Source: a virus | Taxonomy: Duplodnaviria > Caudoviricetes | Direction: 5' to 3' (one strand) | Length of the DNA: 64,000 nucleotides | IMG/VR virus record: IMGVR_UViG_3300012979_000031 | Coordinates: 1-64,000 of that record | In this document: piece by piece, positions 1,695-58,223 of the stretch | How the letters are laid out: each line of letters opens with the position of its first letter | Numbering within the stretch: the stretch's first letter is position 1 | Notes under the pieces: generated by a model | Seen by the model: only the letters and a program-made list of their open reading frames with translations | Database searches by the model: none | What the model was told of the DNA's origin: nothing | Program-made: the position numbers and the translations under genes

Positions 1695-2765
1695 TCAGAT
1701 AAGTTGTTGTAGTATAGTCTGACTAATAAGATCTATAGCACCGTTAACATCTCTCCAATCACATGTTTCATTCTGTGTGTGCATGCTTAGATTAGGAATA
1801 GATACTAGGCACGTTTCACAATCTTTCGAATTCAACTGGATAGCGTCTGTATTTGTTCCTCCACATCTTGCAACGCCTCTTTGGAACTCTATGTCAATTT
1901 TATTAGCAGTCTGGACAAGAAGATTACAAAGTCTCATACTCTTATCCTGACCATACTCGATAACAGGACCAGAGCCGAGCTTAATATCACCATACTTAAC
2001 CTTACTTACCAAACCGCCATTAGTAGCAAAAGTAACGTCAATGTCTATACTAATGTCTGGGTTAATGTTATGTGCTGCTACAGTTGCTCCTCGTAATCCA
2101 CTTTCTTCCTGAGTACAAGCAGCAAAATACACAACAACATCACTATCCTCATCAATCTTACCATTCAACTCTTCGGCAACCTTAGCAACTACGTAAACTC
2201 CAATCTTGTCATCTAGAGCGTTACCTACAATCTTATTATCACCAAACTTAGAGATAACATTACGCTCGAAGACAACAAGAGATCCGGGGTGAACATAAAA
2301 TCTATCCTCAACATCAGCCTTAGAGTCAGCACCAATATCTAAACGAAGCTGCTCTATCTTACAAGCACTATCCGCCTCCTTTCCTTTACCGTCAATATGA
2401 ATAGGAGCTTTATGTACAATTCCCTTTATCCACTCTCCTTTATCATTTCTTACTCTAAGTTGAGCCCCTGGGAGAACTTTTTTATCAACTCCCGCCAGAT
2501 TTTGAAGAACAATCATACCGTCATCCTCAATCAATCCGACCATCATAGCAATTTCGTCGATGTGAGCTGAAATAAGGATCTTCGTTTTACCCTTACCCTC
2601 TTTTCCCAGACGATAGGCCGAATTACCAATCTTGTCTGAGTAAGCTGGTTCAATGTGGGCAAGTTCTTTCATTTTCTTGTCCCAAACTTCAGTAGCTTTA
2701 ACCTCATAAGAACTAGGACTATAAGCCATAAGTAAGTCCTCTAAGAATTTTAAATCTCTTTCCAT
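1695..2765 (-). CDS. M42 family (M20/M25/M40 clan) metallo-aminopeptidase
   Basis: SAHIDEI, ALDDKIG, QEESGLRGA, IDIDVT, GGTNTD and SMHT motifs. Confidence 0.9.
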   Translation of the reverse strand: MERDLKFLEDLLMAYSPSSYEVKATEVWDKKMKELAHIEPAYSDKIGNSAYRLGKEGKGKTKILISAHIDEIAMMVGLIEDDGMIVLQNLAGVDKKVLPGAQLRVRNDKGEWIKGIVHKAPIHIDGKGKEADSACKIEQLRLDIGADSKADVEDRFYVHPGSLVVFERNVISKFGDNKIVGNALDDKIGVYVVAKVAEELNGKIDEDSDVVVYFAACTQEESGLRGATVAAHNINPDISIDIDVTFATNGGLVSKVKYGDIKLGSGPVIEYGQDKSMRLCNLLVQTANKIDIEFQRGVARCGGTNTDAIQLNSKDCETCLVSIPNLSMHTQNETCDWRDVNGAIDLISQTILQQLI

Positions 2766-8859: not shown

Positions 8860-8869
8860 AAAGTTTATA

Positions 8870-10090
8870 TTAATATGATGCAATAGCTTTAAATACTACA
8901 CTTCTCTCACCTTCAGTCTTTGTTCCTTCGAATAACGGTAGGTAAACTCTCTCTAGTGCATCTCCAAGTTTCCAACCATCTCGAATCAACTCAGCAACCA
9001 TTAATGACTCACGAATACTTAGACTCGTTGAAATCTGCTGCTTCATTGCTAAACTTCTAATGTTATTTGTAATCTTAACAATCAACTGAGAAGTAGCATT
9101 GTCAATACCACATCTAGTAGTCAATACATCAATCTCCTCATTTACAGGAATATATGTTAACTCTAGTGGCATAAATCGATTGAGAAGAGCTCTATCTATC
9201 GCATTTGTTCCAGTATACTCACAACCAATATTAGCTGTAGCAATAAAACAAACCTCTGGATGAACCTTAATCTCTCTACAATCTTCACTAGATGCTACTT
9301 CAATACTCAACTTTCTACGATCATCTAGACATGGAAATAGTACATTATTGGTTGCTAGTGGTGCACGTGATAATTCATCCAATAAAATTACACATGGCTC
9401 CTGAATAGCTTTCGTAAACTCCGCATAATCAAATACAGACTTTCCTCCTTCTAGTCTATGTACTCCAAGCAAACTAGATATAGGATCAATCATAGAACCC
9501 ATATCAAATACATACAACTTCTTTCCTAATCTATCACAAGCCTCTTTAACTGCAGTAGTCTTTCCAACACCACAAGGACCAATGATCATAGTATTAACAC
9601 TCTTCTTAATATTTCTAACAAGCAAGTTCCAATCTCCACTTGACATGTAAAATCCATCCTTCTTTGATGATGGAGCCTGTAGAGTAACATCACTAATCAA
9701 CTCATCCAAGAATGTAGAAACTTTAGCTTTAGGCGTTGTTGTTGATTTTGATTCCACCTCATCTACAAATGGACAACCCATCATTAGTCGTTTGTAGGCG
9801 TTCTGAACTTCTTCACTTGCAGATTCACCTAGTACACCATTAATGTTAACAGAATAATAGAAATTTCCTTCCTTACATCTCTTAGTGCACTTTAGTAGAT
9901 TGTCGTTGATAGCATAATAAATACTTCCCGCCGAAAGCTCACTAGCAATAGATTCAACGTCTTTTCCACCAATCTTGATAGTCTTTGTGCAGTCTATTCC
10001 TTCTTCACCTAAAGTCTGGCCTGGAAGTGCTACTAGTCTAATGTGCTTTCTCATCTGAACTGCCTTGAAAAAATAATAATTATTCTCCAT
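8870..10090 (-). CDS. MoxR/CobS-like AAA+ ATPase
   Basis: GPCGVGKT, ILLDELSR, IATAN, DRALLNRF. Confidence 0.9.
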   Translation of the reverse strand: MENNYYFFKAVQMRKHIRLVALPGQTLGEEGIDCTKTIKIGGKDVESIASELSAGSIYYAINDNLLKCTKRCKEGNFYYSVNINGVLGESASEEVQNAYKRLMMGCPFVDEVESKSTTTPKAKVSTFLDELISDVTLQAPSSKKDGFYMSSGDWNLLVRNIKKSVNTMIIGPCGVGKTTAVKEACDRLGKKLYVFDMGSMIDPISSLLGVHRLEGGKSVFDYAEFTKAIQEPCVILLDELSRAPLATNNVLFPCLDDRRKLSIEVASSEDCREIKVHPEVCFIATANIGCEYTGTNAIDRALLNRFMPLELTYIPVNEEIDVLTTRCGIDNATSQLIVKITNNIRSLAMKQQISTSLSIRESLMVAELIRDGWKLGDALERVYLPLFEGTKTEGERSVVFKAIASY

Positions 10091-20584: not shown

Positions 20585-21391
20585 ATGGAAGACTTAAAAT
20601 TAGGAAAGAAAGGGAAAGACCTAGAACTATTATGTAAGCTCTTAGGTGTTCCAGGGAGACTCGAATTTGATAGAAACCTGGATGAAGCAGTAAAGAGTTA
20701 TCAGAGAGTTAAGGGATTAGTAGTAGATGGATGGGTTGGTTATAATACATGGAAGTCGCTATTAATAGATTACAGAAATAAGGTTCACTCGGATAACAAG
20801 GATGGTTCAGGGATTAGTGACTTGGATTATGACCTGTTCTCCAATCTCCTAGGTATAGAGTCAGCGGTTCTCAAGGCAGTTCAGAAGGTAGAGACTGGAG
20901 GAAAAGGTGGATTCTGTAGTAATGGAAAGCCACAGATATTATTCGAAGGTCATGTATTTTGGAAAGAACTAGAGAAACTTGGAATATCCCCTGAGAAGTA
21001 TGGTTCTGCCTGGAGTAATGTTTTGTATAAGTCTTGGGATAGAACTAAGTATAAAGGTGGAACCGGAGAATGGGATAGATTAGAATTAGCCAAGAAGATA
21101 AATATTAACGCTGCTTATAAGTCTGCATCATGGGGTATGTATCAGATCATGGGAAATAATTATGCCAAGTGTGGATGTAAGACTATCGGAGAGTTTGTAG
21201 AGTTAATGAGTAAGGATAGTTTTTCTCAGTTCATCCTAGGTATAGAATTTTTAAAGAATACTGGAATGGTGAAGTACTTGAAAGCTAAGGATTGGGCTTC
21301 TTTTGCTAGAGTATACAATGGGAGTGGATATAAGCAGAACAAGTATGATGAGAAGCTAGAGAAAGCCTACAATCAGTATAAAACCACCTAA
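20585..21391 (+). CDS. endolysin: peptidoglycan-binding domain plus N-acetylmuramidase (DUF3380-like)
   Basis: AVKSYQ..GLVVDGWVG..TW; VETGG, ILFEGH, SASWGMYQIMG.N, FARVYNG. Confidence 0.9.
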   Translation: MEDLKLGKKGKDLELLCKLLGVPGRLEFDRNLDEAVKSYQRVKGLVVDGWVGYNTWKSLLIDYRNKVHSDNKDGSGISDLDYDLFSNLLGIESAVLKAVQKVETGGKGGFCSNGKPQILFEGHVFWKELEKLGISPEKYGSAWSNVLYKSWDRTKYKGGTGEWDRLELAKKININAAYKSASWGMYQIMGNNYAKCGCKTIGEFVELMSKDSFSQFILGIEFLKNTGMVKYLKAKDWASFARVYNGSGYKQNKYDEKLEKAYNQYKTT

Positions 21392-21446
21392 AAATAGTAT
21401 AGTTTTTTTCAAGAGGTTCTTATAGGTGAACAATAATAGAACAATT

Positions 21447-23174
21447 ATGAAAAAACCAGAAACTATATTTGAAAAAATGTTTGGCTCTTTTGCAGTAGGA
21501 AACTCTAGAGTACCAATCAGAAGTAATGTCTATAATAATGGAGGTAGAGGATATTCACCTATCGGGACTACAGCATCTAAGTTATTTTCATCAGATAGAA
21601 AGAGTCCAATCCTAGGTAATGCATCCCCTTCAAACTTATTATCTGGATTTTACGAAAGAATATCAGAGTTAAAGGGGTATCAGCTGGTAGATATTGCAAA
21701 ATTAGCTACAAACTTTTATGCAGATTATGTTGTAAATTTCTTAACTGATGATGGAAATGGTAGACAAATTCTTACAATCTTAGATCAGGATGGAAATAAC
21801 AATAATAATGCGACAGAGAGAATAAACAATATATTAACAAAGGATATAAATATTTTCTCTTATATAAAGATGCATATTCAGGACTACATATACTATGGAT
21901 CTTATTATAGTATGTTGAGTACTGACAGAAATGATACTGGACATATTACGTTTAAGGTGGAAGAAATAGTAGATCCAGTGTCTGTAGTAAGAAAATTAAA
22001 AAGAGATTTAAAGACTGGGGAGGTTAATGAAGTTTATCTGGCAAAAGGTGATGATGGAACTTTGTATGAGATTCCTGCAAATGAAGTTATCTATCTAGCT
22101 CAGAATAACTTAAGACTTTTGAATGACTTAGAGGAAGGTTGGAAAGAGAGAAGAAAAGAACAACAAAGAAATCCGAAACTAGGAAAAGATGGAGAAACTA
22201 ATCGCGATAAAGTTCTGAGGAAAGAGTCTTACTTTTCTAGTGAACCACTTCTTTATTCTTTAATATTAAAAATAAAGGAATTAATTATTAAAGAGCTTCT
22301 AGTTTCATTAATTTCACTAAGGGATTTATCTAGTGTTCAAATATTCCTTTTACAAGTAGATAAGTCAATTCCAATGGAGAGTGCTAATGAGTTATGTGCA
22401 AAGGCTACTAAACTAGCGAATAACACAAATGAACTAGCCTCTTTTCTAACTTCTCAATTTGATGCAGTTAGTTTTATTGAGAATACCTTAAGTCAGTCTG
22501 CTAAATTTGTTCCAGATTATAATTCTACGCTAGGTGGAAAGAATTCTATGTTACCTCTAGATAAATTATCAGATAAGTTATTAGAGATAATGCAGACCTT
22601 AGATCAATGTAGAGCAGGGATACTGTCTCCACTAGGTCTACCATCTAGTATTACTGACGTTCAGAGTGGAAATAAGTGGCAGATATTACAGCAATCAGAG
22701 CGAGCTAATAGTAGAGTTTCAATGTATATCTCAGGAATTAAGGACTCAGTTACAGCACTTGTTCAGAATATATACGAGAAGCTTTATGGAGAAAGACTTG
22801 ATTCATCTTTTATCAAGTTACATATATGTGAGAAGACCAGTGTAGAGTATAACAATCAGATTAATCAGTCAGATTCGATCAGTACGTTACTACAAGGAAT
22901 TCAAAATATATTACAAAACTCACTTCAAACCCTAGATCAGGCGATTCCATTTGTAGACCCTAGAGCTTGGTTGATTTATGTCCAGAATTTGATTAGAGAT
23001 ATAGATCCAAATACAGCGAATTTAATAACAGAGCAGACTATCAAGAATTATTTACAGGTTATTCAGGCTAAGTTTAATCAGCAGTGTATGGGAATTGATC
23101 TAGACCCTTCACAGATTCAACTTATTCCACCACTAGATAACGATAATCAAGGTGACAATAGTAAATTAAGATAA
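21447..23174 (+). CDS. portal protein (T4 gp20-like, divergent)
   Basis: ~575 aa upstream of protease/scaffold/MCP; DYIYYG and LSPLGLPSS portal-like segments. Confidence 0.65.
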   Translation: MKKPETIFEKMFGSFAVGNSRVPIRSNVYNNGGRGYSPIGTTASKLFSSDRKSPILGNASPSNLLSGFYERISELKGYQLVDIAKLATNFYADYVVNFLTDDGNGRQILTILDQDGNNNNNATERINNILTKDINIFSYIKMHIQDYIYYGSYYSMLSTDRNDTGHITFKVEEIVDPVSVVRKLKRDLKTGEVNEVYLAKGDDGTLYEIPANEVIYLAQNNLRLLNDLEEGWKERRKEQQRNPKLGKDGETNRDKVLRKESYFSSEPLLYSLILKIKELIIKELLVSLISLRDLSSVQIFLLQVDKSIPMESANELCAKATKLANNTNELASFLTSQFDAVSFIENTLSQSAKFVPDYNSTLGGKNSMLPLDKLSDKLLEIMQTLDQCRAGILSPLGLPSSITDVQSGNKWQILQQSERANSRVSMYISGIKDSVTALVQNIYEKLYGERLDSSFIKLHICEKTSVEYNNQINQSDSISTLLQGIQNILQNSLQTLDQAIPFVDPRAWLIYVQNLIRDIDPNTANLITEQTIKNYLQVIQAKFNQQCMGIDLDPSQIQLIPPLDNDNQGDNSKLR

Positions 23175-23178
23175 AATT

Positions 23179-23505
23179 ATGAGTGACGAACAGAGAAATC
23201 AAGAGAACGAAGAAATTGCTAGCAGACTAAAAGCTGGTGGTGGTGCTGTAGGTATTCTTGGCGGTACTGGTTGGGGTTCTGCAAAATTAGCGGAGCATCT
23301 AGATAAAAAGCAGAAGGAGATAGTTCGGAAAGGTGGAAAACCTCTAAAGTATATGGCTGAAAGAGGTCTAACTCCAGAGGAACTCGAGAGTATCGGTAAG
23401 ATGAAGAGTATAGCAAAGTATATGGCGCTCATTGGTGGTAGTGCTTATGCTGGAACCAAAGCTTACGAACACTTCAAGAATAAGAATAAAAAGAAAGAGG
23501 AGTAA
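23179..23505 (+). CDS. small Gly-zipper protein
   Basis: Two Gly-rich helices, AYEHFKNKNKK tail. Confidence 0.65.
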   Translation: MSDEQRNQENEEIASRLKAGGGAVGILGGTGWGSAKLAEHLDKKQKEIVRKGGKPLKYMAERGLTPEELESIGKMKSIAKYMALIGGSAYAGTKAYEHFKNKNKKKEE

Positions 23506-23891
23506 TGATAATCTTTAGACCTAAGCTTTTCGCAGTTGTTGGAAAACTTGGAGGACAAATTACACCTGCTATTGCTGCCGCTAATCAAAGGTCTCAGATG
23601 GCTTTACAGAGAACGAACCTAGTTACGCAAAGAAGTCAGCAACTAGAGGGCATGAAGCAGTCTAGGTTGAATACGTCCATGATGAGAATGGCACAACAGA
23701 ATTCTCTTCACCAGGCCAGAGCTAAACAAAGGCAAGGTATGCAAAACCAAAGATTAGCAGTACAGAAACAAATAGCTGCCGAAAGGAATCTAGTTAAACT
23801 TAAAGCTGCGGAAAAAGCGACTGCAGTAAAAAATGTTCAGCTATTCAAGAGACCTTCTGCAGTTGTTCCTCCTGTTCCTATGAAAAATTAG
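23505..23891 (+). CDS. leader-bearing Q/R-rich protein (MIIFRPKLFA)
   Basis: Leader; coupled TAATG start. Confidence 0.7.
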   Translation: MIIFRPKLFAVVGKLGGQITPAIAAANQRSQMALQRTNLVTQRSQQLEGMKQSRLNTSMMRMAQQNSLHQARAKQRQGMQNQRLAVQKQIAAERNLVKLKAAEKATAVKNVQLFKRPSAVVPPVPMKN

Positions 23892-23898
23892 ATAAGTC

Positions 23899-24000
23899 AT
23901 GGAAAAGCTAAAAGAAAAGACATTCACTACTGGTACGGAGAATACTCAAAGTGAAAATGAGAATGATAGAATATTTAACCCACTAAAACAGCAGGGTTAA
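23899..24000 (+). CDS. 33-aa ORF MEKLKEKTFT...
   Basis: Fills the operon gap; carries a KTFT motif; translated by hand. Confidence 0.4.
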   Translation: MEKLKEKTFTTGTENTQSENENDRIFNPLKQQG

Positions 24001-24038
24001 AACTAGAGAATAAAATAAAATAAATCAATTTAAATACA

Positions 24039-24866
24039 ATGAAAAATTATTTTGATAACGAAGATTTTTTTTCCGCTATTGAGGAAAGAGCTTTCAGTGC
24101 TGGTTATAATGCACGTTTGAATGAGAAGATGTATGCTGAGGAGGATAAGAAGGCCGCTGAAGGTGTTCTAGATAAGCTTAAGGGATACGGTAATAAGGCA
24201 AAGAACTACGGTAAGGAATTCTGGGAAGGTAATAACGCTACTAAATCTAAGTGGGGTAATCGTGCTATCGCTGGAACTACTGCTGTCGCTTCTGTAGCTA
24301 TCCCAACTGCACTTTATCTACGTAAGAAAGCAAAGAAGGCTGAAGAAGCTGCTGAGGCTCTTGAGGAGGCTGCTGAGGCACAGCGTGAGTATAGTGCTTA
24401 CTTAGCTAATCTTGAGGAGAGAATTTATTCTGAGGATGAGGATGCACTAGAGGAGGCTGTTGATATCGTTGAGAATGCATCTCCTGCTGATAAGAAGCGT
24501 CTTGCTATTGCTGGTGCTATCGGTGCTGGTTCTGTAGCTGGTATAGGTGGAGCTGCTTACGGTGTTAGTAAGGGTATTCAGAAGGCAGCTAGAAAGAAAA
24601 ATGCTCTTGTTAATGCTAGTTATGGTGATGAGGCATTCAATAAGGCTTCTAAAGCTAGAGATGAATTTATGAAAACTCGTTTGAAGAAGACAGCTGGATA
24701 CTTGAATGAAAAAGAGGAAGCTTTGGCTAAACTTTGGAAGAGTGGTAATGCTGGAAAGGCTAAGGTTATCGGTGCAAGTGCTGGTACTTTAGCTCTTGGT
24801 GCAAGTGCTGGAGTTGGTGCTAAGAAAGCTTACGACTACTACAAGAACAAGAAGAATAATGACTAA
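24039..24866 (+). CDS. probable abundant internal head protein with Gly zippers and repeated [KR]x[FY][SA] sites
   Basis: RAFSA, KMYAE, REYSA, RIYSE; GCT/GGT/AAG-rich codons similar to the MCP. Confidence 0.65.
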   Translation: MKNYFDNEDFFSAIEERAFSAGYNARLNEKMYAEEDKKAAEGVLDKLKGYGNKAKNYGKEFWEGNNATKSKWGNRAIAGTTAVASVAIPTALYLRKKAKKAEEAAEALEEAAEAQREYSAYLANLEERIYSEDEDALEEAVDIVENASPADKKRLAIAGAIGAGSVAGIGGAAYGVSKGIQKAARKKNALVNASYGDEAFNKASKARDEFMKTRLKKTAGYLNEKEEALAKLWKSGNAGKAKVIGASAGTLALGASAGVGAKKAYDYYKNKKNND

Positions 24867-25007
24867 TTTATAAATAGAGATAGGGAAGACTTGGTTTTTC
24901 CCTTCTCTATATGGGGAATTAATATATCACACCTCCACGTTGGTATTCCCTGGGCATAGGCAGAGATGATATAGAATTGATTAATAAAATTATAACAGAG
25001 GAAGTAT

Positions 25008-26240
25008 ATGAGATGTAAATGTAAAATACTCTCCGTGAATGGAGTCCCTGCCAGCGATGGTAGTATAGTTCCACTTAACGTGATGGAGGAGTATTTAAAG
25101 AGTGAGGATTGTCAGGAAGCTCTCAAAATGCATAAGATGGTTGGATCCTTAACACATCGTTGTAGATCTATCCAAGCTAATTTTCCAGAGTCTGCATCTA
25201 CACTTCAAAAAACAGTAGGTAAAGATGATTCACTTATCATTGTTGGTGAGAAAGCTCCAGCACCTACACACTATATTGAAGACTTGTTTATAGAGGATGG
25301 CTGGCTTTGGGGAATTATAAAGATCCTAGATGAGGCTGGTATGGATGATTATGCGATTCAGAATATTCGTAGACTCAAGGGAATGCTAAAGCAGGGAATT
25401 CTTCCAGGAGTTTCAGCAGTTATCGTTGGTTATTGGGATTCTAATTCTGGATCTGGTAATGATATTCTAAAGAAGTTTGTTGCTTGTAAGGGAATAGACT
25501 GTACATTAAATCCAAGTTGGAAGAAGGCAACTATTACAGAGGTCTTTGATGATAAGGAAGATATACGTGAATTTTCAGAAAAAGAAATCACAAACCTTAA
25601 TATTGAGGATTACAAATTTGATGGAGTTAAGGTAAAAGCTTTCAGTAATATTAACTCTCTTGATATAAATGTTCCAAAGTCTAGTAAGATTGATGGACAT
25701 TTTACTAAGTTGATTGCAAAGGTATTCTCGTCTAATGGAGTAGTTTCAGAAATTCCAGACAAGGAGGAGTGTGTAATGAAAGAGAAGACATACTCAGCAA
25801 TGACAGTCAACGAGAGAGTAAAGGTGGCTAAGTTATCTCCACGTGAAAGATTTAGAAGACTTATCCTAGATTACCGACAGGCTGTTAGATCTCAAGGAGG
25901 AGTAGATAAGATTGATGAAGAGACATTGAAGACTATGAAATCATTATTTGCTAGTGATGTTCTTAGTATTATGTCTGTAGTAACTCCATTAGTACTAGAG
26001 GGAAAGAACTTATTAACTCTATTGAATGCAGGAGCCCTAGGAGTAGAGGTGAGAAAGGCATGTCAAGCAATGTTCCTACCATATCGTCAAGCATTACAGG
26101 AAGTAGGTAAGACTGGTGCTATCAGTAAGAATAGATACACCAAGATTACTGAAGCATATACAGAATTTATCAAGGCATTGCAGAACTATGTTTTTGGTCC
26201 GAGTGTAGTAGAAGAGATTAACGAAGAGGAGGAGAATTAA
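25008..26240 (+). CDS. prohead core protease (gp21/assemblin-like) with C-terminal extension
   Basis: GSLTH (His), PGVS (Ser), IDCTLNPS (Asp); lies between portal and MCP. Confidence 0.75.
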   Translation: MRCKCKILSVNGVPASDGSIVPLNVMEEYLKSEDCQEALKMHKMVGSLTHRCRSIQANFPESASTLQKTVGKDDSLIIVGEKAPAPTHYIEDLFIEDGWLWGIIKILDEAGMDDYAIQNIRRLKGMLKQGILPGVSAVIVGYWDSNSGSGNDILKKFVACKGIDCTLNPSWKKATITEVFDDKEDIREFSEKEITNLNIEDYKFDGVKVKAFSNINSLDINVPKSSKIDGHFTKLIAKVFSSNGVVSEIPDKEECVMKEKTYSAMTVNERVKVAKLSPRERFRRLILDYRQAVRSQGGVDKIDEETLKTMKSLFASDVLSIMSVVTPLVLEGKNLLTLLNAGALGVEVRKACQAMFLPYRQALQEVGKTGAISKNRYTKITEAYTEFIKALQNYVFGPSVVEEINEEEEN

Positions 26241-27076
26241 TGAAGCAAAGAAGAAAGCTATTTTCAGAATCTGCACCTGTTCGTAGGAAATTATTCTCAC
26301 TAACAGATGGAGCTACAGTAAAGACATTAAAGTGTGCAGATTGTGGTTTTGAGATAGAGAGTAGAGCAACAACTACTAATATAAGATGCCCTAAGTGTGG
26401 TGGAATTCATTTTAATGTAGTAAGAAAAGTGGATTCTCCAGAGGTAAGTAATCCGGTATCAGAGAGAATTTCGCTATTTTCAGATAAAGGTAAAGAGGAT
26501 AGAGAGCTAGAATTCCAGAAAAGTTTTAGTGAGCCTAGTAATGACTTTGAGTTGAAATTGAAGAGATATTCAGGCAAGACAATTTTACTAGACTCTGCAG
26601 AGAAGATTTTTGGAGTACCAGCGGATGAGTTGATAGAGAAGCGTTATGCAAATGTTGATGGAGAAAACCTAAATATTTCATCAGATGCTTTTCTAAAGGC
26701 TAAGCTATTCTCAAAACTTATCGTATCAGTAACAAAAGTAATGGACCTTGACCCAGAGATTACATGTAGTTCGCATCCTGAGATAGATAAACTACGTGCC
26801 ATCAGAGGTTTAGAGGATTCAGGAGTTTTGTGTCCTAAGAGTATAGTAATGATTAAGAAGGCACATGGATTTGGCCCAGAACCTTTATCAAATTGGGCAG
26901 AGGATTCAGGTATACTTGGAGACTTGAGAGCTGAATTTGGAGGTTCTAGCATGGAGTACCCTTCTTTCAAGAGAACAATTGAAGAACGTTATCCAGATGC
27001 TCCTGAGGGTATCTTGGATCTTCTGAAGAAACACGGTATTATTCAGGTCAATGGTGATCGTGTGCATGTTTTATAA
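26240..27076 (+). CDS. Zn-ribbon head-associated protein
   Basis: CADC...CPKC; RKLFS x2, KSFS, KRYS, KLFS. Confidence 0.6.
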   Translation: MKQRRKLFSESAPVRRKLFSLTDGATVKTLKCADCGFEIESRATTTNIRCPKCGGIHFNVVRKVDSPEVSNPVSERISLFSDKGKEDRELEFQKSFSEPSNDFELKLKRYSGKTILLDSAEKIFGVPADELIEKRYANVDGENLNISSDAFLKAKLFSKLIVSVTKVMDLDPEITCSSHPEIDKLRAIRGLEDSGVLCPKSIVMIKKAHGFGPEPLSNWAEDSGILGDLRAEFGGSSMEYPSFKRTIEERYPDAPEGILDLLKKHGIIQVNGDRVHVL

Positions 27077-27108
27077 GATTTCAAATAAAAACAAAGTAAC
27101 AAAGAAGT

Positions 27109-29277
27109 ATGAAAAATACTATTACGACTAGATTTATGTCTAGACTCTTTTCTGCAACAGAGGAGGGTGATGAGGAATTAACGGCACAGGTAGCACAGGA
27201 TATCCAGGATGCTCAGAGAAATGGTGCTGTTGATACTGATGAAGTTAGATATGAGGATAATGGAGATGGCAGCGTCTCTGTTATTGATAAAGATAATGGT
27301 GAGGTAACAATCGCACAAGAGGCTGAAGATGGCAATTTTGACCTCTATGCTATGCCTACAGGAAATCTTGAGCAGTTCGTACATCCGGAAGGTGATGGTG
27401 TAACTCCTGGAATCCAGCAAGGTGTAGATGATGAGTGTGCATGGAGTCATCTTGAGACGGGTGTTATTTCTCCAAATGTTCCAGGTGGTGGTTTGAATCC
27501 GGTAGCTGGTTATGAGCCTACAGTTGAGGAGAATGCTTATGCTCCTTGTGATAGCTGTAGTGATGAGCGTGAGTTCAGTGTAGCAACTGATAATACTGCT
27601 GTACTTAGAATTTTTAATGATCAGGCTTATTGCGAGAGAGTTTTCTCAGAGGTAATTGAGACAGAGGAAACTGCGAATGTCGGAGATTTGAAGATTGAGA
27701 AAATTGATGATGATACAGTAGTAGTTACTTCAAAGTCAACTGGAGATCAGGCAAGAGTAACTTTAGACGGAGAAAACATGGAGATTGATGAATTAACAAC
27801 AAAGGATGGTGCTGACGAGAGAGAGTTCAGTGAGGAAGAGCAGTATGATGCAATTCACATTGTTGGAGTAGATCCAGTGAACCATGTAATCGTAGATGCA
27901 CCAGAGTATGATCCAGAATCTGCACAGGAACTAATGGAACAACTAGCTGCAGATGGCGTACAGGGTGTTGAAGCTTTCGATAATCCTGATGACGCTAGAG
28001 AATATGCTGCAAACTTACTAGAATCACTAGGTGCAGAAACAGAAGATGATATTGAGGAGCCAGTTCAAACAGAGTACTCAGATCACACTATTTTTGTAAC
28101 TAAGTTCTATTCAGCAGAGGCACAGACATCTTATATGGAGCGTTTATTCTCAGAGGTAGAAAATGGTATTGATGCTTCACAGAAAGATATCGAGTATGCT
28201 ATTGAGAACAGTGAGGAAGTTGAGAATGACACAGAAATCATTACTCCGGTAGATAGCGAGACTGCTGTAATTGAGGATAAGGAGACTGGAGAATTCACAA
28301 AGGTCACTCTAGATGGTGCAGAGCTTGATTGTAAGGCTATCTCAGAGGAGGAAGCTGAAGATCTAGTAGAGGATGTTCGTGTTGTAGAGGATGATGATGA
28401 GGATGAGGAAGATAGAGAGTTCTCAGAGGCCATCGATTACTACTTTGACGATGAAAGATATTTCTCTGACATTGTTGAGGATGAGGATCTAGAAGACCTT
28501 GAGTACAGTCTATTCTCAGAGATGGAGGATGAAGATATCTACACAAACGAGGAGCAAACTAAGTTCTTCTCAGAGAGCGAGGAATTAACAGCTTATCAGC
28601 AAAGACTATTCTCAGGTGAAGCAGACGAGAAAGAAATCGAGCACGCTATTGAGAATGGTGAGCAGATTGAGAATGACTCAGAGATTATTACTCCAGTAAA
28701 CGAGGATACTGCTATCATTGAGGATAAGGAGACAGGAGAGTTTACAAAGGCTATCCTAGATGATGAAACTATCGATGTAACTCCTATTAGCGAAGACGAG
28801 GCTGATCGATTGACTGACGGACTTCGTGTTTCAGAGGATGCAGAGGGCGAAGAAGATGAGAAAGAGTTTTCAGAGCTTGATTACCAGGATGTAAACCTTG
28901 GTGATGAGGTAATGGAGAAGTTCTTCGCAGAGTCTGTAGGTGGTCCAGTTGGTGGTGAAGTCGTTCCTCTATATGATGCAGAGGGTAATCCAGCTCCAAT
29001 CGGTATGGATGCACAGGGTAATGTAGTTCCTGTAGAAGATCCAGCACAGCAAGAGGGAGTAGCTCCTTCACTAGAGGTTATTGAGGATACAGCAGATCAG
29101 GCAGTTAACTTAATTCAGCAAGCTGCACAAGAGGCTGCAAATCAGATTCTTCAGGCAAAACAGGCACCAGTTCAAGGACAGGAGCAGGATTTGCAAGAGG
29201 CTCAGTTCTCAGAAGTAGAGGTTCTAGATGCTAACGGTGATACACTAGTTAGTTGGATGAATGCTAGCAAATTTTAA
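27109..29277 (+). CDS. highly acidic prohead scaffold/core protein with internal repeats
   Basis: D/E-rich, directly upstream of MCP; 11 [KR]x[FY]S sites. Confidence 0.7.
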   Translation: MKNTITTRFMSRLFSATEEGDEELTAQVAQDIQDAQRNGAVDTDEVRYEDNGDGSVSVIDKDNGEVTIAQEAEDGNFDLYAMPTGNLEQFVHPEGDGVTPGIQQGVDDECAWSHLETGVISPNVPGGGLNPVAGYEPTVEENAYAPCDSCSDEREFSVATDNTAVLRIFNDQAYCERVFSEVIETEETANVGDLKIEKIDDDTVVVTSKSTGDQARVTLDGENMEIDELTTKDGADEREFSEEEQYDAIHIVGVDPVNHVIVDAPEYDPESAQELMEQLAADGVQGVEAFDNPDDAREYAANLLESLGAETEDDIEEPVQTEYSDHTIFVTKFYSAEAQTSYMERLFSEVENGIDASQKDIEYAIENSEEVENDTEIITPVDSETAVIEDKETGEFTKVTLDGAELDCKAISEEEAEDLVEDVRVVEDDDEDEEDREFSEAIDYYFDDERYFSDIVEDEDLEDLEYSLFSEMEDEDIYTNEEQTKFFSESEELTAYQQRLFSGEADEKEIEHAIENGEQIENDSEIITPVNEDTAIIEDKETGEFTKAILDDETIDVTPISEDEADRLTDGLRVSEDAEGEEDEKEFSELDYQDVNLGDEVMEKFFAESVGGPVGGEVVPLYDAEGNPAPIGMDAQGNVVPVEDPAQQEGVAPSLEVIEDTADQAVNLIQQAAQEAANQILQAKQAPVQGQEQDLQEAQFSEVEVLDANGDTLVSWMNASKF

Positions 29278-29320
29278 GATAAACAAATATAAAATATAAT
29301 ATAATAAATTAATAAAGAAT

Positions 29321-30823
29321 ATGAATCAGTATTCAGAATATAGAAGTACGTACATGAACACTCCAGCTATGTCTGAGATGTTGTTACATGGTTCAGTATC
29401 TGTTGCAGATGCAAAGAACAGAGCAAACGAGTACGCTAAGATGTTCTCTCGTAATGATGAGATGATGGAAGGTGTTTACAATAGCCAGCCTTCTCTACTT
29501 GATAAAGCCTTCCCAGGTTATTACTCACAGAAGACTTTCTCTGGTTATTCAGAGACTCCACTATTGTCTACACAGTACTTTAATGCATCAGTAGCTTCTT
29601 ATGTTAGCTCTTTTGCAGGATTTATGTCTATTGAGCGTGACTTTGATCAGCCAAACGGTCTTTTCTACTGGTTTGACGTTCTAGGTGTAACTAACATGCG
29701 TTCAATCATTCCTAACCTTGGACCAGATAACTACCAGGATATTCAGACTATGGGTGGTTTCACAACTGAGATCTCTCCAAGTACAGATAATGCCGTTAAG
29801 GATTATCAGGTTATTACAGGTCGTAAGATCATCCCTGGTACAGTTCGTGTAAAGGTAGCTGATGGAAATAACTCATATGAGCTAGTTGATGATGGTAAGG
29901 GATCTCTAATGGCTATCGCTAACAAGATCACTTCTTCAGAGATTAACTACTTGACTGGTACTGTTAAGTTTACAGTAGTAGCTAACCCTGCTTCAACTGG
30001 TACTATCACAATCATCGGTAAGGAGGATACTACAGGTACTCCATGTAATACTAATGGTGCATCTAATTCTCACGCAAATGACAAGAGAGTTATCGCTAAG
30101 ATGCAGCAGACTGGTCTTAATACTGTACCTGATATGCTAGTTGCTGAGTATAACATCGCTTCTCTAGGTGCACTTAAGAAGGCTACTAACACAGATATGG
30201 CAACATTCTTGTTCACTAAGCTTCGTGAGTTGTATACTAAGTGTATTAACTACAAGTTGGTTTCTACTCTAGAGGAGGGTTACACAGGTGATACAATGGG
30301 AACTACTGCTAATGGATTCTCATTGGCTGCAGCAGCAATTTCAGGTCAGTTCTATGATTATCGTTCACGCGTTGACTTGTTCGATGCATTCTTGATCGAT
30401 GTTGAGGCTGCTCTTGCTCAGAAGGCTGTTAAGGGTGTAAACATCACTGCATTCGTTGCTGGTGCTAAGGCTTCAAATCATTTCCAGAAGGGTGGTATGA
30501 TTGGTAAGTTCGAGAAGAATACTAAGATCTCTTACATCAATGACCTTATCGGTTGGTATGATGGTATTCCAGTACTTCGTTCTACAGATATTAATGAGAA
30601 CGAGGCTGATGGTTCAGATGCAGTATTCTACGCTATCCACAAGACTCCAGACGGTCAGATGGCTCCTTTGGCACGTGGTATCTACATGCCATTGACTGAT
30701 ACTCCAACAATCGGTAACTATGCTAACCCTACTCAGATGGCTGCAGGTATCTACTATCAGGAAGGTACTAAGATGCTAGCTCCAGAGTTGGTACAGCGTG
30801 TTGCTTTCAAGTCAGGTATCTAA
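29321..30823 (+). CDS. major capsid protein (T4 gp23-like, HK97 fold)
   Basis: DQPNGLFY, LVAEYNIA, YMPL..NPTQMAAG resemble gp23 motifs; highly biased codons; followed by a terminator. Confidence 0.8.
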   Translation: MNQYSEYRSTYMNTPAMSEMLLHGSVSVADAKNRANEYAKMFSRNDEMMEGVYNSQPSLLDKAFPGYYSQKTFSGYSETPLLSTQYFNASVASYVSSFAGFMSIERDFDQPNGLFYWFDVLGVTNMRSIIPNLGPDNYQDIQTMGGFTTEISPSTDNAVKDYQVITGRKIIPGTVRVKVADGNNSYELVDDGKGSLMAIANKITSSEINYLTGTVKFTVVANPASTGTITIIGKEDTTGTPCNTNGASNSHANDKRVIAKMQQTGLNTVPDMLVAEYNIASLGALKKATNTDMATFLFTKLRELYTKCINYKLVSTLEEGYTGDTMGTTANGFSLAAAAISGQFYDYRSRVDLFDAFLIDVEAALAQKAVKGVNITAFVAGAKASNHFQKGGMIGKFEKNTKISYINDLIGWYDGIPVLRSTDINENEADGSDAVFYAIHKTPDGQMAPLARGIYMPLTDTPTIGNYANPTQMAAGIYYQEGTKMLAPELVQRVAFKSGI

Positions 30824-30873
30824 TAAATTCTTTGAGTTGTAAAAACTCCTTAAGTAAAAAAGAATAAAAATAA

Positions 30874-30916
30874 AGAGGGAATCAATTACACATCTAGTAG
30901 TTGGTTTCCTCTTTTT
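30874..30916 (+). terminator. intrinsic terminator after MCP
   Basis: AGAGGGAATCAA...TTGGTTTCCTCT followed by T-run. Confidence 0.7.
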
Positions 30917-30943
30917 AATTTAAGATAATGATAATAATAATAC

Positions 30944-31171
30944 ATGGCTAGATTTATTTTAAAACGTAAGATTTTCTTTGTTGGACTTGGAAACCTGGCC
31001 AACGCTGCTACAGGTATGAAAGGTGCTCAACAATTAACTTCTGCTGGAAAAGCCTGGGAAGCAACTAAAGGAATAACTAAGTTAGGCATTGCTGGAACTG
31101 CTGTAGCTGCTCCTATTATTGCTGCTAAAGGGGCGTATGATATTGCAACTGGAAAACCTTTAGAAAGTTAA
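30944..31171 (+). CDS. leader-bearing small hydrophobic protein (MARFILKRKIFF)
   Basis: Leader; LGIAGTAVAAP helix. Confidence 0.7.
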   Translation: MARFILKRKIFFVGLGNLANAATGMKGAQQLTSAGKAWEATKGITKLGIAGTAVAAPIIAAKGAYDIATGKPLES

Positions 31172-31175
31172 AAAG

Positions 31176-31754
31176 ATGATTATAGTAAGACAAAAACAAT
31201 TTGATGAAGAAGAAAGTAGTACTGGTTCTAAAATTTTAAAAGGAACACTAGGAGTTGCTGGAACTGTTGGTGCTTTCTACGGTGCTCGAAAAGGTATGCT
31301 AGGTAATACTATTCAGATGGGAGCTAATAAACTCTACGGACAAGCTGGTGTTCAGTTGCAAAGACTAGGTAATACAGTTGCAGGTGGCTGGAAAGGAGGC
31401 GGTAATTTCCTTGCTAAACGTGGAAATAATATGGTAGAGTCTGCTTCTAAGGAATACGGAATCGCTAATGCACAGAAAAATTTAATCCAAGAGGGTATGA
31501 GCAAGGATCAAGTAGTCGGAGCAATTAATAAAGGTAAATCACAACTCAGAAATGATCTCTACAAAGATTATGGTGGTAGAAGTGGATTTAGAACACAACA
31601 GAATAATATAGACTATAAAAATATGTACGACTCCCAGAAAGCAATTAAGAAACCTGTAACCCCTACTCCTGTAACTAGTGGTGATTCTATAACTACAGCT
31701 AATAACCACGTACCTACAGTTGATCAATTAAAAGGTGGTTTAAGACTAGCATAA
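31176..31754 (+). CDS. leader-bearing Gly-rich protein (MIIVRQKQFD)
   Basis: Leader; GTLGVAGTVGAFYG. Confidence 0.7.
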   Translation: MIIVRQKQFDEEESSTGSKILKGTLGVAGTVGAFYGARKGMLGNTIQMGANKLYGQAGVQLQRLGNTVAGGWKGGGNFLAKRGNNMVESASKEYGIANAQKNLIQEGMSKDQVVGAINKGKSQLRNDLYKDYGGRSGFRTQQNNIDYKNMYDSQKAIKKPVTPTPVTSGDSITTANNHVPTVDQLKGGLRLA

Positions 31755-31765
31755 AAATAATAATA

Positions 31766-32839
31766 ATGAAAGAGTTTATATATAGAGGTCTAGTATTAAG
31801 TACTAACTGTAAATACTTTAATGTAGTGAAAGGCATTAGTGATTCAGTTGTTGAAGATAATACGACGTCTACATTAACTTTATCATTTACAGAAGGTAGT
31901 ACAACAGACTCATTTTCGGAATTAACAGGTACACCTAAGATTGGAAAGTCACAGGAACTGGAACCTCTCGGAGTACCAATGAAACTTTCTGATCAAATAT
32001 TAACACTGAATGGCCTGAAGTTAAGAAAAAAGACTATAGATTCTCATGTGATTAATATAGTAATAGTTAGTGATTGTGAGTCTAGAGTAAGTCAAGATTA
32101 CTGGCATACAACTATAGTAGTTTCAAAGAATGATGCTAATAATCCAGAATTCGCCCAATACTTATTCTATTCTGGAAACTTAAAATTCTTACAACCAGTC
32201 GGACCTATGCCAGATTGTTGGGAGATTAGAAACTTTCCAAAGATAATAATAGGAGATACTAGCTTAACATTAACATCAACCAGTACAGAGGTTTTTCAGC
32301 TTAGAAGGACTTATGATGATTATGTAATACGAGCCATAGACTATCAAGAACAAGCTATATCAGAGTTTAGAAGAATACTTGATGGATATGGATTAGAGCT
32401 AGTAAGACAAAATAAAGAAACTACATTGAAAAAGACATCTTATGTAGTTTATCAGTTCTCTCAAACCCCAACTAAGATCAATCACCCATATTACGATGAA
32501 GTTGGTAGAAGAGTTATTTCACACAAGCTACCAGTCAACTTTTCATTACATACTACAGATATGGTTATGTTCTTTGATTTTAAAAATAAGTATACAAACC
32601 TAGATCTATTAACTAATTTCTGTGAGTATAAGACCTATGATAAGTATGGGAAAAGATGGACTGCTGCTATAAAATGGGGAGGAATCACAGAGGACTTTAA
32701 TCATCAATACCAATCAGATGATAATTCTAATTTTGCATTTCAGTGTCAGTTTATGTGTGAAATACATTTTTATGAAGTATTTGATGATAGATATGATGTG
32801 TTGAGAGAAATAGAACAATCGATTGAAGCAGAAGGATGA
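31766..32839 (+). CDS. virion structural protein, possibly neck or tail terminator
   Basis: Position between capsid and sheath; beta-rich C-terminus; no decisive motif. Confidence 0.4.
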   Translation: MKEFIYRGLVLSTNCKYFNVVKGISDSVVEDNTTSTLTLSFTEGSTTDSFSELTGTPKIGKSQELEPLGVPMKLSDQILTLNGLKLRKKTIDSHVINIVIVSDCESRVSQDYWHTTIVVSKNDANNPEFAQYLFYSGNLKFLQPVGPMPDCWEIRNFPKIIIGDTSLTLTSTSTEVFQLRRTYDDYVIRAIDYQEQAISEFRRILDGYGLELVRQNKETTLKKTSYVVYQFSQTPTKINHPYYDEVGRRVISHKLPVNFSLHTTDMVMFFDFKNKYTNLDLLTNFCEYKTYDKYGKRWTAAIKWGGITEDFNHQYQSDDNSNFAFQCQFMCEIHFYEVFDDRYDVLREIEQSIEAEG

Positions 32840-37645: not shown

Positions 37646-39991
37646 ATGGCACAATGGAATGAAACTCTTGAGCCTTATATTAAAGTTCAGGAGGAAGTTA
37701 AAACCGCTACTCTAAATCCAACTACAGGTGAGGATTTAATTGTTGGATGTGTTATTTTCGCAGATGCAGGTCCTTCCGTTCCTACACTAATTAGAGGTCA
37801 GAAGGAGTTTAAGTCAGTTTTTGCATCACAAGAAATTACTGAAGATTATATAAACAGCCTGAATAAACTATATGATTGCGGTGAGAAGGGAGATAAAACA
37901 CTTCCAAGTACACTCTGGACTAATGCTTACCGCCTGGCTGGATCTAATACATTACTAGTTGTTCGTGCTGGTAAAAGTAAAGGAGTTAATTTTGTAAAGT
38001 CGGTAGAGAAGAATGATTTTAGTACATATCTTCTTAAGGACGGTGCAGTATTGAAGAAAGTAGAACCATTTAAGATTGTTGTAGATTTCGATGGAGACTC
38101 AGCTGCTCATTCTACAGATGGTTGGTCAGTTAATATTGAAGGTGTAGGTATCATTGGTAATAGAGTAACAGATAATGGTTCTCAATATGATATTCCTGCT
38201 AATAACCTTCCAGAACTAGTAAAGATTCTTAATGAAACTTCTGTATTCTTCTCTCCATCATACAAGTTCTATTCAGATGTTGAAGCTACAGATGCTAATG
38301 AGGTTCCAGCAAGTTCTAGTGAGATTCGTTCTGTAAAATTTGATGAAGTATATCTTGCTAATACTATTCTAGATACAACAGATGAAAGATGCCCTAACGG
38401 AACTTGTTATCTTGTATTCTGTGAGCCTGATTTCAATGAGCCAGATCAGCAAGTTATTAATGAGTTCTTACAAAATAAATCAGGTTTACTAGATGCGAAT
38501 ACAATAGCTAATTTCGATGCCCCAGAGTTTTATGCAATCAATAATTATAATACTGCTTCAGAACTTAGAGTTAGAATTCGTAGATTTAATCATGATGCAG
38601 TAAATACTAATAACATTGGTACATTAACTCAGCTTACTTCTACAGGTCCTTCAGCAGTTGTTCCAGTGAAGGAGGTTCTAGATACATTTACTAAGGGAGG
38701 TACATCAGAGGTTAGTGATTCAGTTAAGAAAAGAGATTTCTTCGAAGTAGCTATCTATGACCCTTCTATATCTAGTGAGGTATTATTCTTCAACATTGGT
38801 AACATTAGCGGTCGTGGAGATGTAACAGTTGATGAGTTTAATAGCCAGATGAGCATGATTGGATTCAACTTACCTAAGGATCTTCATGACTTGGATCTAA
38901 ACTACTCTGGATATGATGCGGATGAGGCTACTTGGGAACTTCTTGTTGATGGACTACCTGCAGGAAAACAAGCTAGTTTCGTTAAGTCAAGCTTTGAGGA
39001 ACTAAATAAGGTAGATAAGACTACTTGGATTGTTGGCGAGACTATTGCTTACGTTGATGGAAATTACTACCTATACGTAACTAATGGTGAGGATCAGATT
39101 TACTGTGACCTTAAGATTGATCCAACAGTTTATAAGATTCTAATGGCTAATGATACTGATCTATTGAATGCTGTTGATCTACTAGAGGAGGATGAGGTTT
39201 ATGTTACAGAAGGTTTGTCAGATCTTGGAAATACTAACGCTTCATTCCAATCTTATGCAGCAAACTTAGCAATCAATGGAAACTACTTCTACCCTATTAG
39301 TACTGTAAACTCTACTAACTACATGACTATTGGCAACTCTATTTCTAAGATTAGCCAGAACTCTTACAAACTATATGCATCTTCTCCTTGGGATCTTGAC
39401 ACTAGTACTCTTGGATGGCCTTGTTACATTTCTCCTAGTGTTCTTTATTGGGAGGCTGTATCAAGAAATCGTAGAAATAATGAAGAGTTCCGTGGAGTTC
39501 TTGGTCAGCAGGGTGGTTTAGTTCAGTATCAGTCTCCTGTAGTTGAGTTTAATAAGAAGACTAGACAGCTACTATTAACAAAGAAAGTAAATACAGCTAC
39601 ATGGGATATTCAGACAAGCAGCTGGATAATGAATGATAACTATACTAAGCAGTCTGAAAATACAATTCTTAGTGATGATGGAAATTCAAGACTACATCTA
39701 AGAATCTCAAAATCTATTCCAGTAATTCTAAAGCAGTTTATTGGAAGAAAGATTACAGATAAGTTGTGTGATGATATTGAGTATACTATCAAATACTTCT
39801 TCCAGACTACAATTCAAAGTTACTCATATACTGTAGATGATTATCAAGTATTCTGTGACTATGATGAAGCTTTGGCACGTCAGAATAAAGTAAAGGTAGT
39901 TATTAATGTAAGATATCATAGAACAGCTAAGTATATCAATGTAATTAACAGAGCATTCGATGTTGGTATGAGTATCGATTCTGCAGAGTAA
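37646..39991 (+). CDS. tail sheath protein
   Basis: EPYIKVQE..GPS.PTLI N-terminus; C-terminal NSRL..I...F.G...L...I...V.V.I......YINV. Confidence 0.8.
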   Translation: MAQWNETLEPYIKVQEEVKTATLNPTTGEDLIVGCVIFADAGPSVPTLIRGQKEFKSVFASQEITEDYINSLNKLYDCGEKGDKTLPSTLWTNAYRLAGSNTLLVVRAGKSKGVNFVKSVEKNDFSTYLLKDGAVLKKVEPFKIVVDFDGDSAAHSTDGWSVNIEGVGIIGNRVTDNGSQYDIPANNLPELVKILNETSVFFSPSYKFYSDVEATDANEVPASSSEIRSVKFDEVYLANTILDTTDERCPNGTCYLVFCEPDFNEPDQQVINEFLQNKSGLLDANTIANFDAPEFYAINNYNTASELRVRIRRFNHDAVNTNNIGTLTQLTSTGPSAVVPVKEVLDTFTKGGTSEVSDSVKKRDFFEVAIYDPSISSEVLFFNIGNISGRGDVTVDEFNSQMSMIGFNLPKDLHDLDLNYSGYDADEATWELLVDGLPAGKQASFVKSSFEELNKVDKTTWIVGETIAYVDGNYYLYVTNGEDQIYCDLKIDPTVYKILMANDTDLLNAVDLLEEDEVYVTEGLSDLGNTNASFQSYAANLAINGNYFYPISTVNSTNYMTIGNSISKISQNSYKLYASSPWDLDTSTLGWPCYISPSVLYWEAVSRNRRNNEEFRGVLGQQGGLVQYQSPVVEFNKKTRQLLLTKKVNTATWDIQTSSWIMNDNYTKQSENTILSDDGNSRLHLRISKSIPVILKQFIGRKITDKLCDDIEYTIKYFFQTTIQSYSYTVDDYQVFCDYDEALARQNKVKVVINVRYHRTAKYINVINRAFDVGMSIDSAE

Positions 39992-57920: not shown

Positions 57921-58223
57921 ATGTTTAAACAAAATAAACTAATAAACACTAATAAAACAGAATTGGCTAACTTTATAGAAGGTCAAGATATATTCAATTC
58001 ATTACTAATATCTGAAATGAATAGACCTGGAATTATGAAGACTATCTATACGGTCACTACTGATTATAGACCTGACTTGGTAGCTCTTGAATTCTATGGC
58101 TCTGAAAATTATCTAGGAATTCTTCTATTACAAACTAGCCCTTCTCTTAGTGTTTTCAAAAAAGGTACTCAACTGAAATTACTACCTAAAGAAACAATTG
58201 ATGAAATAATAACTAGACTATGA
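57921..58223 (+). CDS. LysM-like baseplate wedge protein (gp53/tail X-like)
   Basis: YRPDLVALEFYGS...G..LKL. Confidence 0.7.
   Translation: MFKQNKLINTNKTELANFIEGQDIFNSLLISEMNRPGIMKTIYTVTTDYRPDLVALEFYGSENYLGILLLQTSPSLSVFKKGTQLKLLPKETIDEIITRL

Follow-up and report, generated by a model that had tools for sequence, protein, structure and literature searches.

A T4 gp21-like prohead protease with a predicted basic-x-aromatic cleavage code in a fragment of an uncultured huge phage

The stretch of DNA analysed here (the window) covers the initial 64 kb of an IMG/VR virus record of 94.8 kb (IMGVR_UViG_3300012979_000031; Caudoviricetes), and our subject is the protein encoded at 25008..26240 together with the head genes around it. 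This protein is probably a gp21-like prohead protease that has been re-specified to a basic residue at P3, an aromatic residue at P1 and a small residue at P1', and a processing programme can be predicted for it. In the proposed code, P3 would be Lys or Arg, P2 would be free, P1 would be Phe or Tyr, and P1' would be small and mostly Ser, with acidic residues weakly preferred at P2'. The motif is read as a protease cleavage code because the placement of its sites copies the substrate pattern of T4 gp21 and SPN3US gp245, and it is from this that we infer both the cutting itself and this protease as the cutter.

Under such a code, the protease would cut itself free at four sites in a disordered linker and break the acidic scaffold down to about 14 small fragments. 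It would also process the portal N-terminus and two core proteins encoded nearby, and remove 73 residues from the major capsid protein (MCP), giving a mature start at Ser74. Lastly, a leader of 7-14 residues would be clipped from about 20 further proteins, and this leader would label them for loading into the head, like the capsid-targeting sequence of T4. The features that carry most of the argument are the following, with lengths and positions in amino acids (aa).

24039..24866, + strand: Gly/Ala-rich protein of 275 aa, with 3 strict (6 loose) sites
25008..25547, + strand: predicted prohead protease catalytic domain (aa 1-180), with invariant H50, H88 and S136
25566..25796, + strand: disordered linker (aa 187-263) with four motif sites, the predicted self-processing sites
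25806..26240, + strand: C-terminal helical domain (aa 267-410), with helices at 267-396 in the AlphaFold2 (AF2) model
26240..27076, + strand: putative zinc-ribbon protein of 278 aa with a short N-terminal leader and 5 strict (7 loose) sites
27109..29277, + strand: acidic scaffold-like protein of 722 aa (28% Asp+Glu, 5% Lys+Arg), with 11 strict (13 loose) sites
29321..29539, + strand: predicted MCP propeptide (aa 1-73), with sites at aa 40-43 and 71-74
29540..30823, + strand: predicted mature MCP, probably of the HK97 fold and T4 gp23-like, perhaps with an insertion domain, from look-alikes and fold matches

A strict site was defined as [KR]-x-[FY]-S, and five adjacent head genes span 24039-30823. 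Pooled, these genes have 25 strict sites where 1.2 are expected, a count reached in 0 of 500 shuffles. The scaffold-like gene has 11 (0.13 expected), 26240..27076 has 5 (0.3 expected), the protease has 4, 24039..24866 has 3 (0.18 expected; reached in 0 of 300 shuffles) and the MCP has 2, with composition-preserving shuffles of each gene giving 0.13-0.3 expected sites per gene. The initial annotation had listed these sites, and all of them are present in the translations. These are RLFS and REFS (three copies each), RVFS, KFYS, RYFS, KFFS and KEFS in the scaffold, REFS, KAFS, KVFS and KTYS in the protease tail (aa 187, 210, 238 and 260), KLFS (three copies), KSFS and KRYS in 26240..27076, RAFS, REYS and RIYS in 24039..24866, and KMFS and KTFS in the MCP (aa 40 and 71).

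A head-versus-rest comparison, close to the head-versus-tail test that had been proposed as a check, was made without the first 16 aa of each protein, so that leaders are excluded. The head genes keep 23 sites, with 1.02 expected (~23x), against 1.0x in the left arm, 0.9x beyond 60.6 kb and 2.4x in the remaining virion region. An unbiased scan of exact gapped patterns places R.FS (p 4.6e-14), FSE and K.FS at the top. Furthermore, two motif positions predict the third in 62-76% of cases, with a background of 7-10%, and the rest of the record gives 10-14%. Altered controls, with other spacing, reversed order, an aliphatic residue for the aromatic or an acidic residue for the basic one, give 0-4 hits each.

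The motif is neither a DNA word nor the result of duplication, because no two of the 25 sites share their 12-nt word, four Lys/Arg codons and both families of Ser codons are in use, and the scaffold sites have flanks with no more than 25% identity to one another. Chance, composition, a DNA word and internal duplication were ruled out by the shuffles, by these codon and flank controls and by the register tests. A Glu-type code, of either the T4 or the phiKZ type, was also rejected, with no enrichment in the head genes, where [LI]-x-E (29 observed, 27.5 expected) and [ASG]-x-E (53 observed, 50.1 expected) are at expectation. In the head genes of T4, the same discovery method recovers L.E and I.E at only ~3x. 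The specificity first proposed, with an aromatic P1 and a basic P3, is supported computationally by enrichment, conservation, fold and the absent Glu enrichment.

In the tail region, the protein at 58220-59314 (+ strand) has three K-x-Y-S sites within 46 residues (aa 238-284), with 0.38 expected. It may be another processed protein, or the cluster may be due to chance.

As for the protease itself, the AF2 model has a confident N-terminal domain (aa 1-180), a disordered linker that holds the four sites, and a helical C-terminal domain. The linker has a predicted local distance difference test score (pLDDT) mostly below 50 (segments 183-213, 229-232 and 238-265). In a Foldseek search against the PDB, the best matches are three chains of 5jbl, which is T4 gp21 (E 1.4e-5, probability 1.00, template modelling score of 0.64 on the target). 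Next in the list are herpesvirus proteases, from Epstein-Barr virus (EBV), pseudorabies virus (PrV), human cytomegalovirus (HCMV) and Kaposi's sarcoma-associated herpesvirus (KSHV). The same search against BFVD gave 127 matches at E<=1e-3, and many among the listed top 50 are annotated as prohead proteases.

An hhalign alignment with gp21 pairs H50 with H85 and S136 with S140, and the local motifs are similar. H85 and S140 are catalytic residues of gp21, and this is the pair that was mutated to obtain a catalytically dead gp21 (PMC12991175). H50, H88 and S136 are invariant in 21 homologs. The Ser of the GVS motif, which the initial annotation had taken as catalytic, is S136, and both its pairing with gp21 S140 and the fold found by Foldseek agree with that assignment. 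The models point to a serine protease of the gp21/assemblin fold. We describe it as a fold-level relative and not as a member of the sequence family, because no curated hidden Markov model matched it and a profile search of the protease alignment against PDB sequences gave nothing.

The linker sites are well preserved. In the alignment of 21 protease sequences (50-83% identity), the motif columns stand out as conserved within a variable linker, with a mean top-residue frequency of 0.89, against 0.56 for the other linker columns, and a class conservation of 95-100%. K210, F212, S213, K238, S241 and K260 are invariant. The predicted products are a protease domain of ~189 aa and a C-terminal piece of 148 aa, and the C-terminal domain is probably a scaffold/core attachment module that the linker cuts would release.

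These sites also bear on whether the motif is cut at all. It could instead be a docking motif, left uncleaved on the scaffold, the leaders and the MCP N-arm, with a chaperone, the portal or the inside of the capsid as its partner. Leaders that target the capsid need something to bind, and enrichment and conservation by themselves are no proof of proteolysis. We nevertheless regard docking as improbable, since the four copies in the protease's own disordered linker are conserved (in the 21-sequence alignment, in 31 distant representatives and in all 26 full-length relatives whose domain end could be placed) and one copy is located exactly at the boundary between the MCP propeptide and body. The spacing of the scaffold sites, 13-142 aa, also gives a layout that fits known protease substrates better.

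Cleavage by the gp21-like protease is further supported by its relatives. The enrichment recurs in eight related IMG/VR loci, whose MCPs are 63-70% identical. There, the scaffold ortholog has 10-13 strict sites (0.1-0.2 expected), the gene next to it 4-5, the protease 3-4 and the MCP 2. An exhaustive profile search found 234 clusters of the protease family at 50% identity. Among them, full-length members that are distant (E 1e-26 to 1e-50) have 2-9 loose sites, mostly just past the catalytic domain. The end of this domain could be located in 26 full-length relatives, and all 26 have from 2 to 5+ sites in the next 120 aa. Finally, the same code is present in the neighbouring genes of three loci around distant members.

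This distribution makes it very unlikely that a different enzyme does the cutting, whether a host protease (Prp-like) or a second phage peptidase, because the motif follows the gp21-like family through its own linker, across clusters at 50% identity. Prp offers a precedent with an aromatic P1 and short N-terminal leaders, but most sites described here are internal and not N-terminal. No Prp gene is present in the record, which is itself only a fragment and uninformative about the host. The record does have an M42 aminopeptidase-like gene (1695..2765) as a candidate second peptidase, but M42 enzymes are aminopeptidases and not endopeptidases.

Some members of the protease family are found in split forms, with stand-alone catalytic domains of ~165 aa, and separate proteins that contain the linker sites and the C-terminal helical domain (P0300, P0301, P0344, P0350, P0258-P0265). 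Some of these may be fragments from short contigs. Other relatives (P0243, P0252, P0253 and P0287) have K/R-L-F-S at residues 6-9, within the modelled first beta-strand, and in the window protease a Leu replaces the aromatic residue of this motif. It may be a vestigial leader or a structural element.

The scaffold-like gene sits between the protease and the MCP, like T4 gp22. Out of its 36 Lys and Arg residues, 13 occupy the P3 position of a site, and the predicted fragments have 13-142 aa. The protein at 26240..27076 is a putative second core or scaffold protein, and its seven sites are kept in six relatives through swaps between Lys and Arg and between Phe and Tyr. The gene 24039..24866 has the position of T4 gp67/gp68, between portal and protease, and encodes a putative processed head or core protein.

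In the case of the MCP, K40, F42, F73 and S74 are invariant in 22 sequences, and S43 and K71 are nearly so. The motif columns of the propeptide reach 0.98, against 0.71 for the other propeptide columns. In the MCP alignment, the part ahead of the second site has gaps and varies, and conservation is strong from the Ser of this site on. The natural prediction is a mature MCP that starts at Ser74 (nt 29540) and has 427 aa, because the conserved body begins directly after the second site. The initial annotation had placed KMFS and KTFS just before the conserved body and the mature start near SGYSETP, which agrees with this boundary.

No Pfam family matches the MCP, and a profile search against PDB sequences gave nothing meaningful. 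Its look-alike clusters in the Atlas have PF07068 Gp23 in 22-40% of their members. The low-confidence MCP model, used for fold-level match only and not for the propeptide boundary, matches the phage P1 head (E 5e-5, Z 9.5), T4 gp24 (Z 8.5) and T4 gp23 (Z 8.0), and also resembles many other HK97-fold capsid proteins.

The motif is also found at the N-terminus of many small proteins. Around 20 open reading frames (ORFs) of the window start with a leader of 7-14 residues that ends in K/R-x-F/Y, and they encode otherwise unrelated proteins. The following are examples.

23505..23891, + strand: small protein, member of the leader family, with a 9-residue leader ending in K-x-F and then Ala
30944..31754, + strand: two small leader-tagged proteins directly downstream of the MCP

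Considering the window and six of the loci, there are 101 leader-bearing ORFs. That the shared leader ends in the motif had been claimed before, and it is true of all 101, which always end in K/R-x-F/Y. The residue that follows is S, G, A, T, F, D, N, V or I. These leaders are unlike the L27 extension.

The leaders help to place the cut within the motif. The same protease and motif could be used with another scissile bond, for example one before the aromatic residue or one after the Ser (with an aromatic P2 and a basic P4). The register cannot be read from the sequence by itself, and Ser is strongly constrained at the internal sites, with 147 of 185 loose sites having it. We still consider another bond unlikely, as it is the residue after F/Y that varies in the leaders while F/Y is invariant, and as the P3/P1 spacing with Ser at P1' is the pattern of studied homologs (PMC10052503). 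We infer a cut directly after the aromatic residue because the leaders keep F/Y at their end while the next residue varies, because SPN3US gp245 prefers Ser at P1', and because the conserved MCP body starts at Ser.

The leaders also decide the case of Ser modification. A basic residue three positions before Ser resembles the motifs of basophilic kinases, and the motif could in principle be a modification site with an R/K-x-x-S consensus. This is hardly credible and was rejected, with Ser being dispensable in the leaders, where G, A, F, D, N, V or I often takes its place and K/R and F/Y are retained. Modification would also leave the invariant aromatic residue and the position at the propeptide boundary unexplained.

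In the head module there is one more candidate substrate of the protease.

21426..23174, + strand: portal-like protein of 582 aa, with sites at aa 17 (Gly-type), 41 and 52

KMFG had been noted at this N-terminus. It is the Gly-type site at aa 17, and two more sites add to it, so that the first 55 residues have three loose or strict sites, all three kept in the L003 ortholog. The Atlas look-alikes of this protein include clusters that are 85% Portal_T4, which we take as a lead only. Two candidates for portal orthologs, L005:32-1963 and L006:1307-3172, were rejected as non-homologous, and only L003 was usable for the comparison of N-termini. Each of these two regions has an ORF of 620-640 aa with a Walker-A-like motif, upstream of small tagged genes, that may encode a terminase-type ATPase.

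The record is a fragment of an uncultured huge phage, because its completeness is ~25% (CheckV) and homologs of the protease and the capsid protein sit on contigs of 325-408 kb. The phage is one of animal guts, and the GC content is 32-40%. A PHROG tail-sheath match on 37646..39991 (E 1.4e-4) suggests that the phage is a myovirus. The gene order, with a portal-like protein, small proteins, the protease, the 278-aa protein, the acidic scaffold-like protein and the MCP, matches T4 genes 20-67-68-21-22-23. The cut-offs for family matches were E<=0.01 for Pfam and E<=0.001 for PHROG. With these, the nine genes at 21426-32839, from the portal-like gene through the gene after the MCP, have zero Pfam matches and no informative PHROG match. 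The exceptions are one weak PHROG match of unknown function on the MCP and the weak zinc-ribbon Pfam matches on 26240..27076, which are below the cut-offs.

Some genes outside the head module deserve mention. The gene at 1695-2765 (- strand) is M42 glutamyl-aminopeptidase-like (Pfam E 2.4e-62), and it could be a trimmer of the new N-termini after endoproteolysis, or an unrelated auxiliary gene. At 6928-10090 (- strand), a MoxR-type AAA+ ATPase (AAA_5, CbbQ_C) adjoins a CobT-like VWA-domain protein, forming a MoxR-VWA chaperone-like pair. An endolysin-like gene (N-acetylmuramidase and PG_binding_1) at 20585-21391 (+ strand) is unusually placed, directly upstream of the portal-like gene. An MFS transporter gene (62419-63612, - strand, Pfam E 5e-27) lies directly past the tail module on the opposite strand, and is either unusual phage cargo or a sign of host-derived DNA. 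Lastly, a tail-region protein of 1150 aa (47234-50686, + strand) has a weak BACON-domain match (E 7.7e-5, under the cut-off), a hint that the host is one of the Bacteroidota. Genome size is similar in the Jug phages that infect Bacteroides (360-402 kb, PMC12880540), but their GC content differs from that of this phage.

Several points weigh against a gp21-like protease with a basic-x-aromatic code. The analysis draws on the sequence and models of an uncultured phage, with no cultured relative in INPHARED (50,697 phage records), where no record matched the MCP, the sheath-like protein or a distant relative of the protease in tblastn searches. The gene names of the initial annotation required testing because Pfam and PHROG gave nothing informative and INPHARED no relative, and the names “scaffold” and “portal” are tentative, from position, composition and language-model look-alikes. 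The protease matches no Pfam or PHROG family at the above cut-offs, its hhalign alignment to gp21 is weak overall (probability 10%, E 0.003), and the AF2 model of the MCP is poor (pLDDT 53). Some tail-region proteins have a small excess of sites. Furthermore, the scaffold and its L001-L008 orthologs have conserved F/Y-Ser positions near aa 321-324 and 698-701 without a basic P3. The code may therefore be looser than stated, and these positions may be secondary sites. Finally, a cut after F/Y and a cut one residue later would leave the same signal in the sequence.

Published gp21-type prohead proteases with a quoted specificity (T4, SPN3US) cut after Glu (PMC10052503, PMC12991175). Neither a prohead protease with an aromatic P1 and a basic P3 nor a description of this group's protease was found in the literature searched, which does not prove their absence. 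The clade as read here has at least 234 protease clusters at 50% identity, on contigs of up to about 408 kb. We slightly favour the broader proposal that this whole, abundant clade of uncultured huge gut/rumen phages has switched its code from a cut after Glu to a cut after F/Y with K/R at P3, and that its substrates have co-evolved.

If the switch is clade-wide, scaffold, capsid propeptide, linker, polyprotein junctions and cargo leaders would all have co-evolved to the new code, and the full set of head-loaded, processed and presumably injected proteins could be listed from sequence. Such a protease would also evade host sensors attuned to the specificity of these enzymes, or select for them; examples are the activation loops of cyclic-oligonucleotide-based antiphage signalling systems (CBASS) described for gp21. 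Bait loops are reported to let the CBASS sensors of hosts read the specificity of prohead proteases (PMC12991175), and a different code therefore predicts different bait sequences in the hosts of these phages. A family member with an aromatic P1 and a basic P3 would show that this fold allows its S1 and S3 pockets to be re-specified in step with dozens of substrates. The ~23x enrichment makes the code so sharp that the motif could serve as a sequence-only label for proteins that form part of the head of an uncultured phage of ~350-400 kb, are processed there and are probably ejected from it. The predicted mature termini are exact and checkable in existing metaproteomes. A protease with a four-residue recognition motif and an aromatic P1 could also be a useful reagent.

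Among known systems, the closest is T4 gp21 (MEROPS S77, Pfam Peptidase_S77, I/L-x-E code), which is the best fold match in the PDB and has its catalytic His and Ser aligned with those of the window protein. The order of the head genes is alike, and so is the layout of substrates, with self-sites, scaffold, MCP N-terminus and leaders. T4 gp21 and SPN3US gp245 are known to process their own tail, a scaffold with many sites, the portal, the N-terminus of the MCP and short leaders of proteins inside the head (PMC10052503, PMC12991175). The capsid-targeting leader of T4 is likewise a short N-terminal peptide shared by unrelated proteins that ends in the site of the protease. The differences are in the motif, which is basic-x-aromatic followed by Ser here and aliphatic-x-Glu in T4, in its enrichment (~23x here against ~3x in T4), and in the protein, which is twice as long in the window, with a linker and a C-terminal helical domain, and has no Pfam match.

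The proteases phiKZ gp175 and SPN3US gp245 (A/S/G-x-E) belong to giant myoviruses with many processed head and ejection proteins, and share with what is predicted for our candidate the C-terminal self-cleavage, the recognition of P3 and P1 and a Ser at P1', which is the preferred residue in SPN3US gp245 (PMC10052503). They differ in that their P1 is Glu, and no sequence similarity to the window protease is detectable.

The same fold class is seen in herpesvirus assemblin (MEROPS S21), which cuts (V/L)-x-Ala|Ser at its M and R sites. Assemblin is a Ser protease with Ser at P1' that releases itself from a C-terminal scaffold-binding part. Its P1 is Ala, it has no basic P3, and it is the enzyme of a eukaryotic virus.

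Finally, the host protease Prp cuts the N-termini of the capsid and scaffold proteins of Staphylococcus phage 80alpha after Phe, at an L27-like leader. The aromatic P1, the short N-terminal leader and the small residue after the cut are common to both systems. Prp is, in contrast, a host cysteine protease that acts only on N-terminal L27-like leaders, whereas the sites described here are mostly internal and co-occur with a phage serine protease that carries such sites itself.

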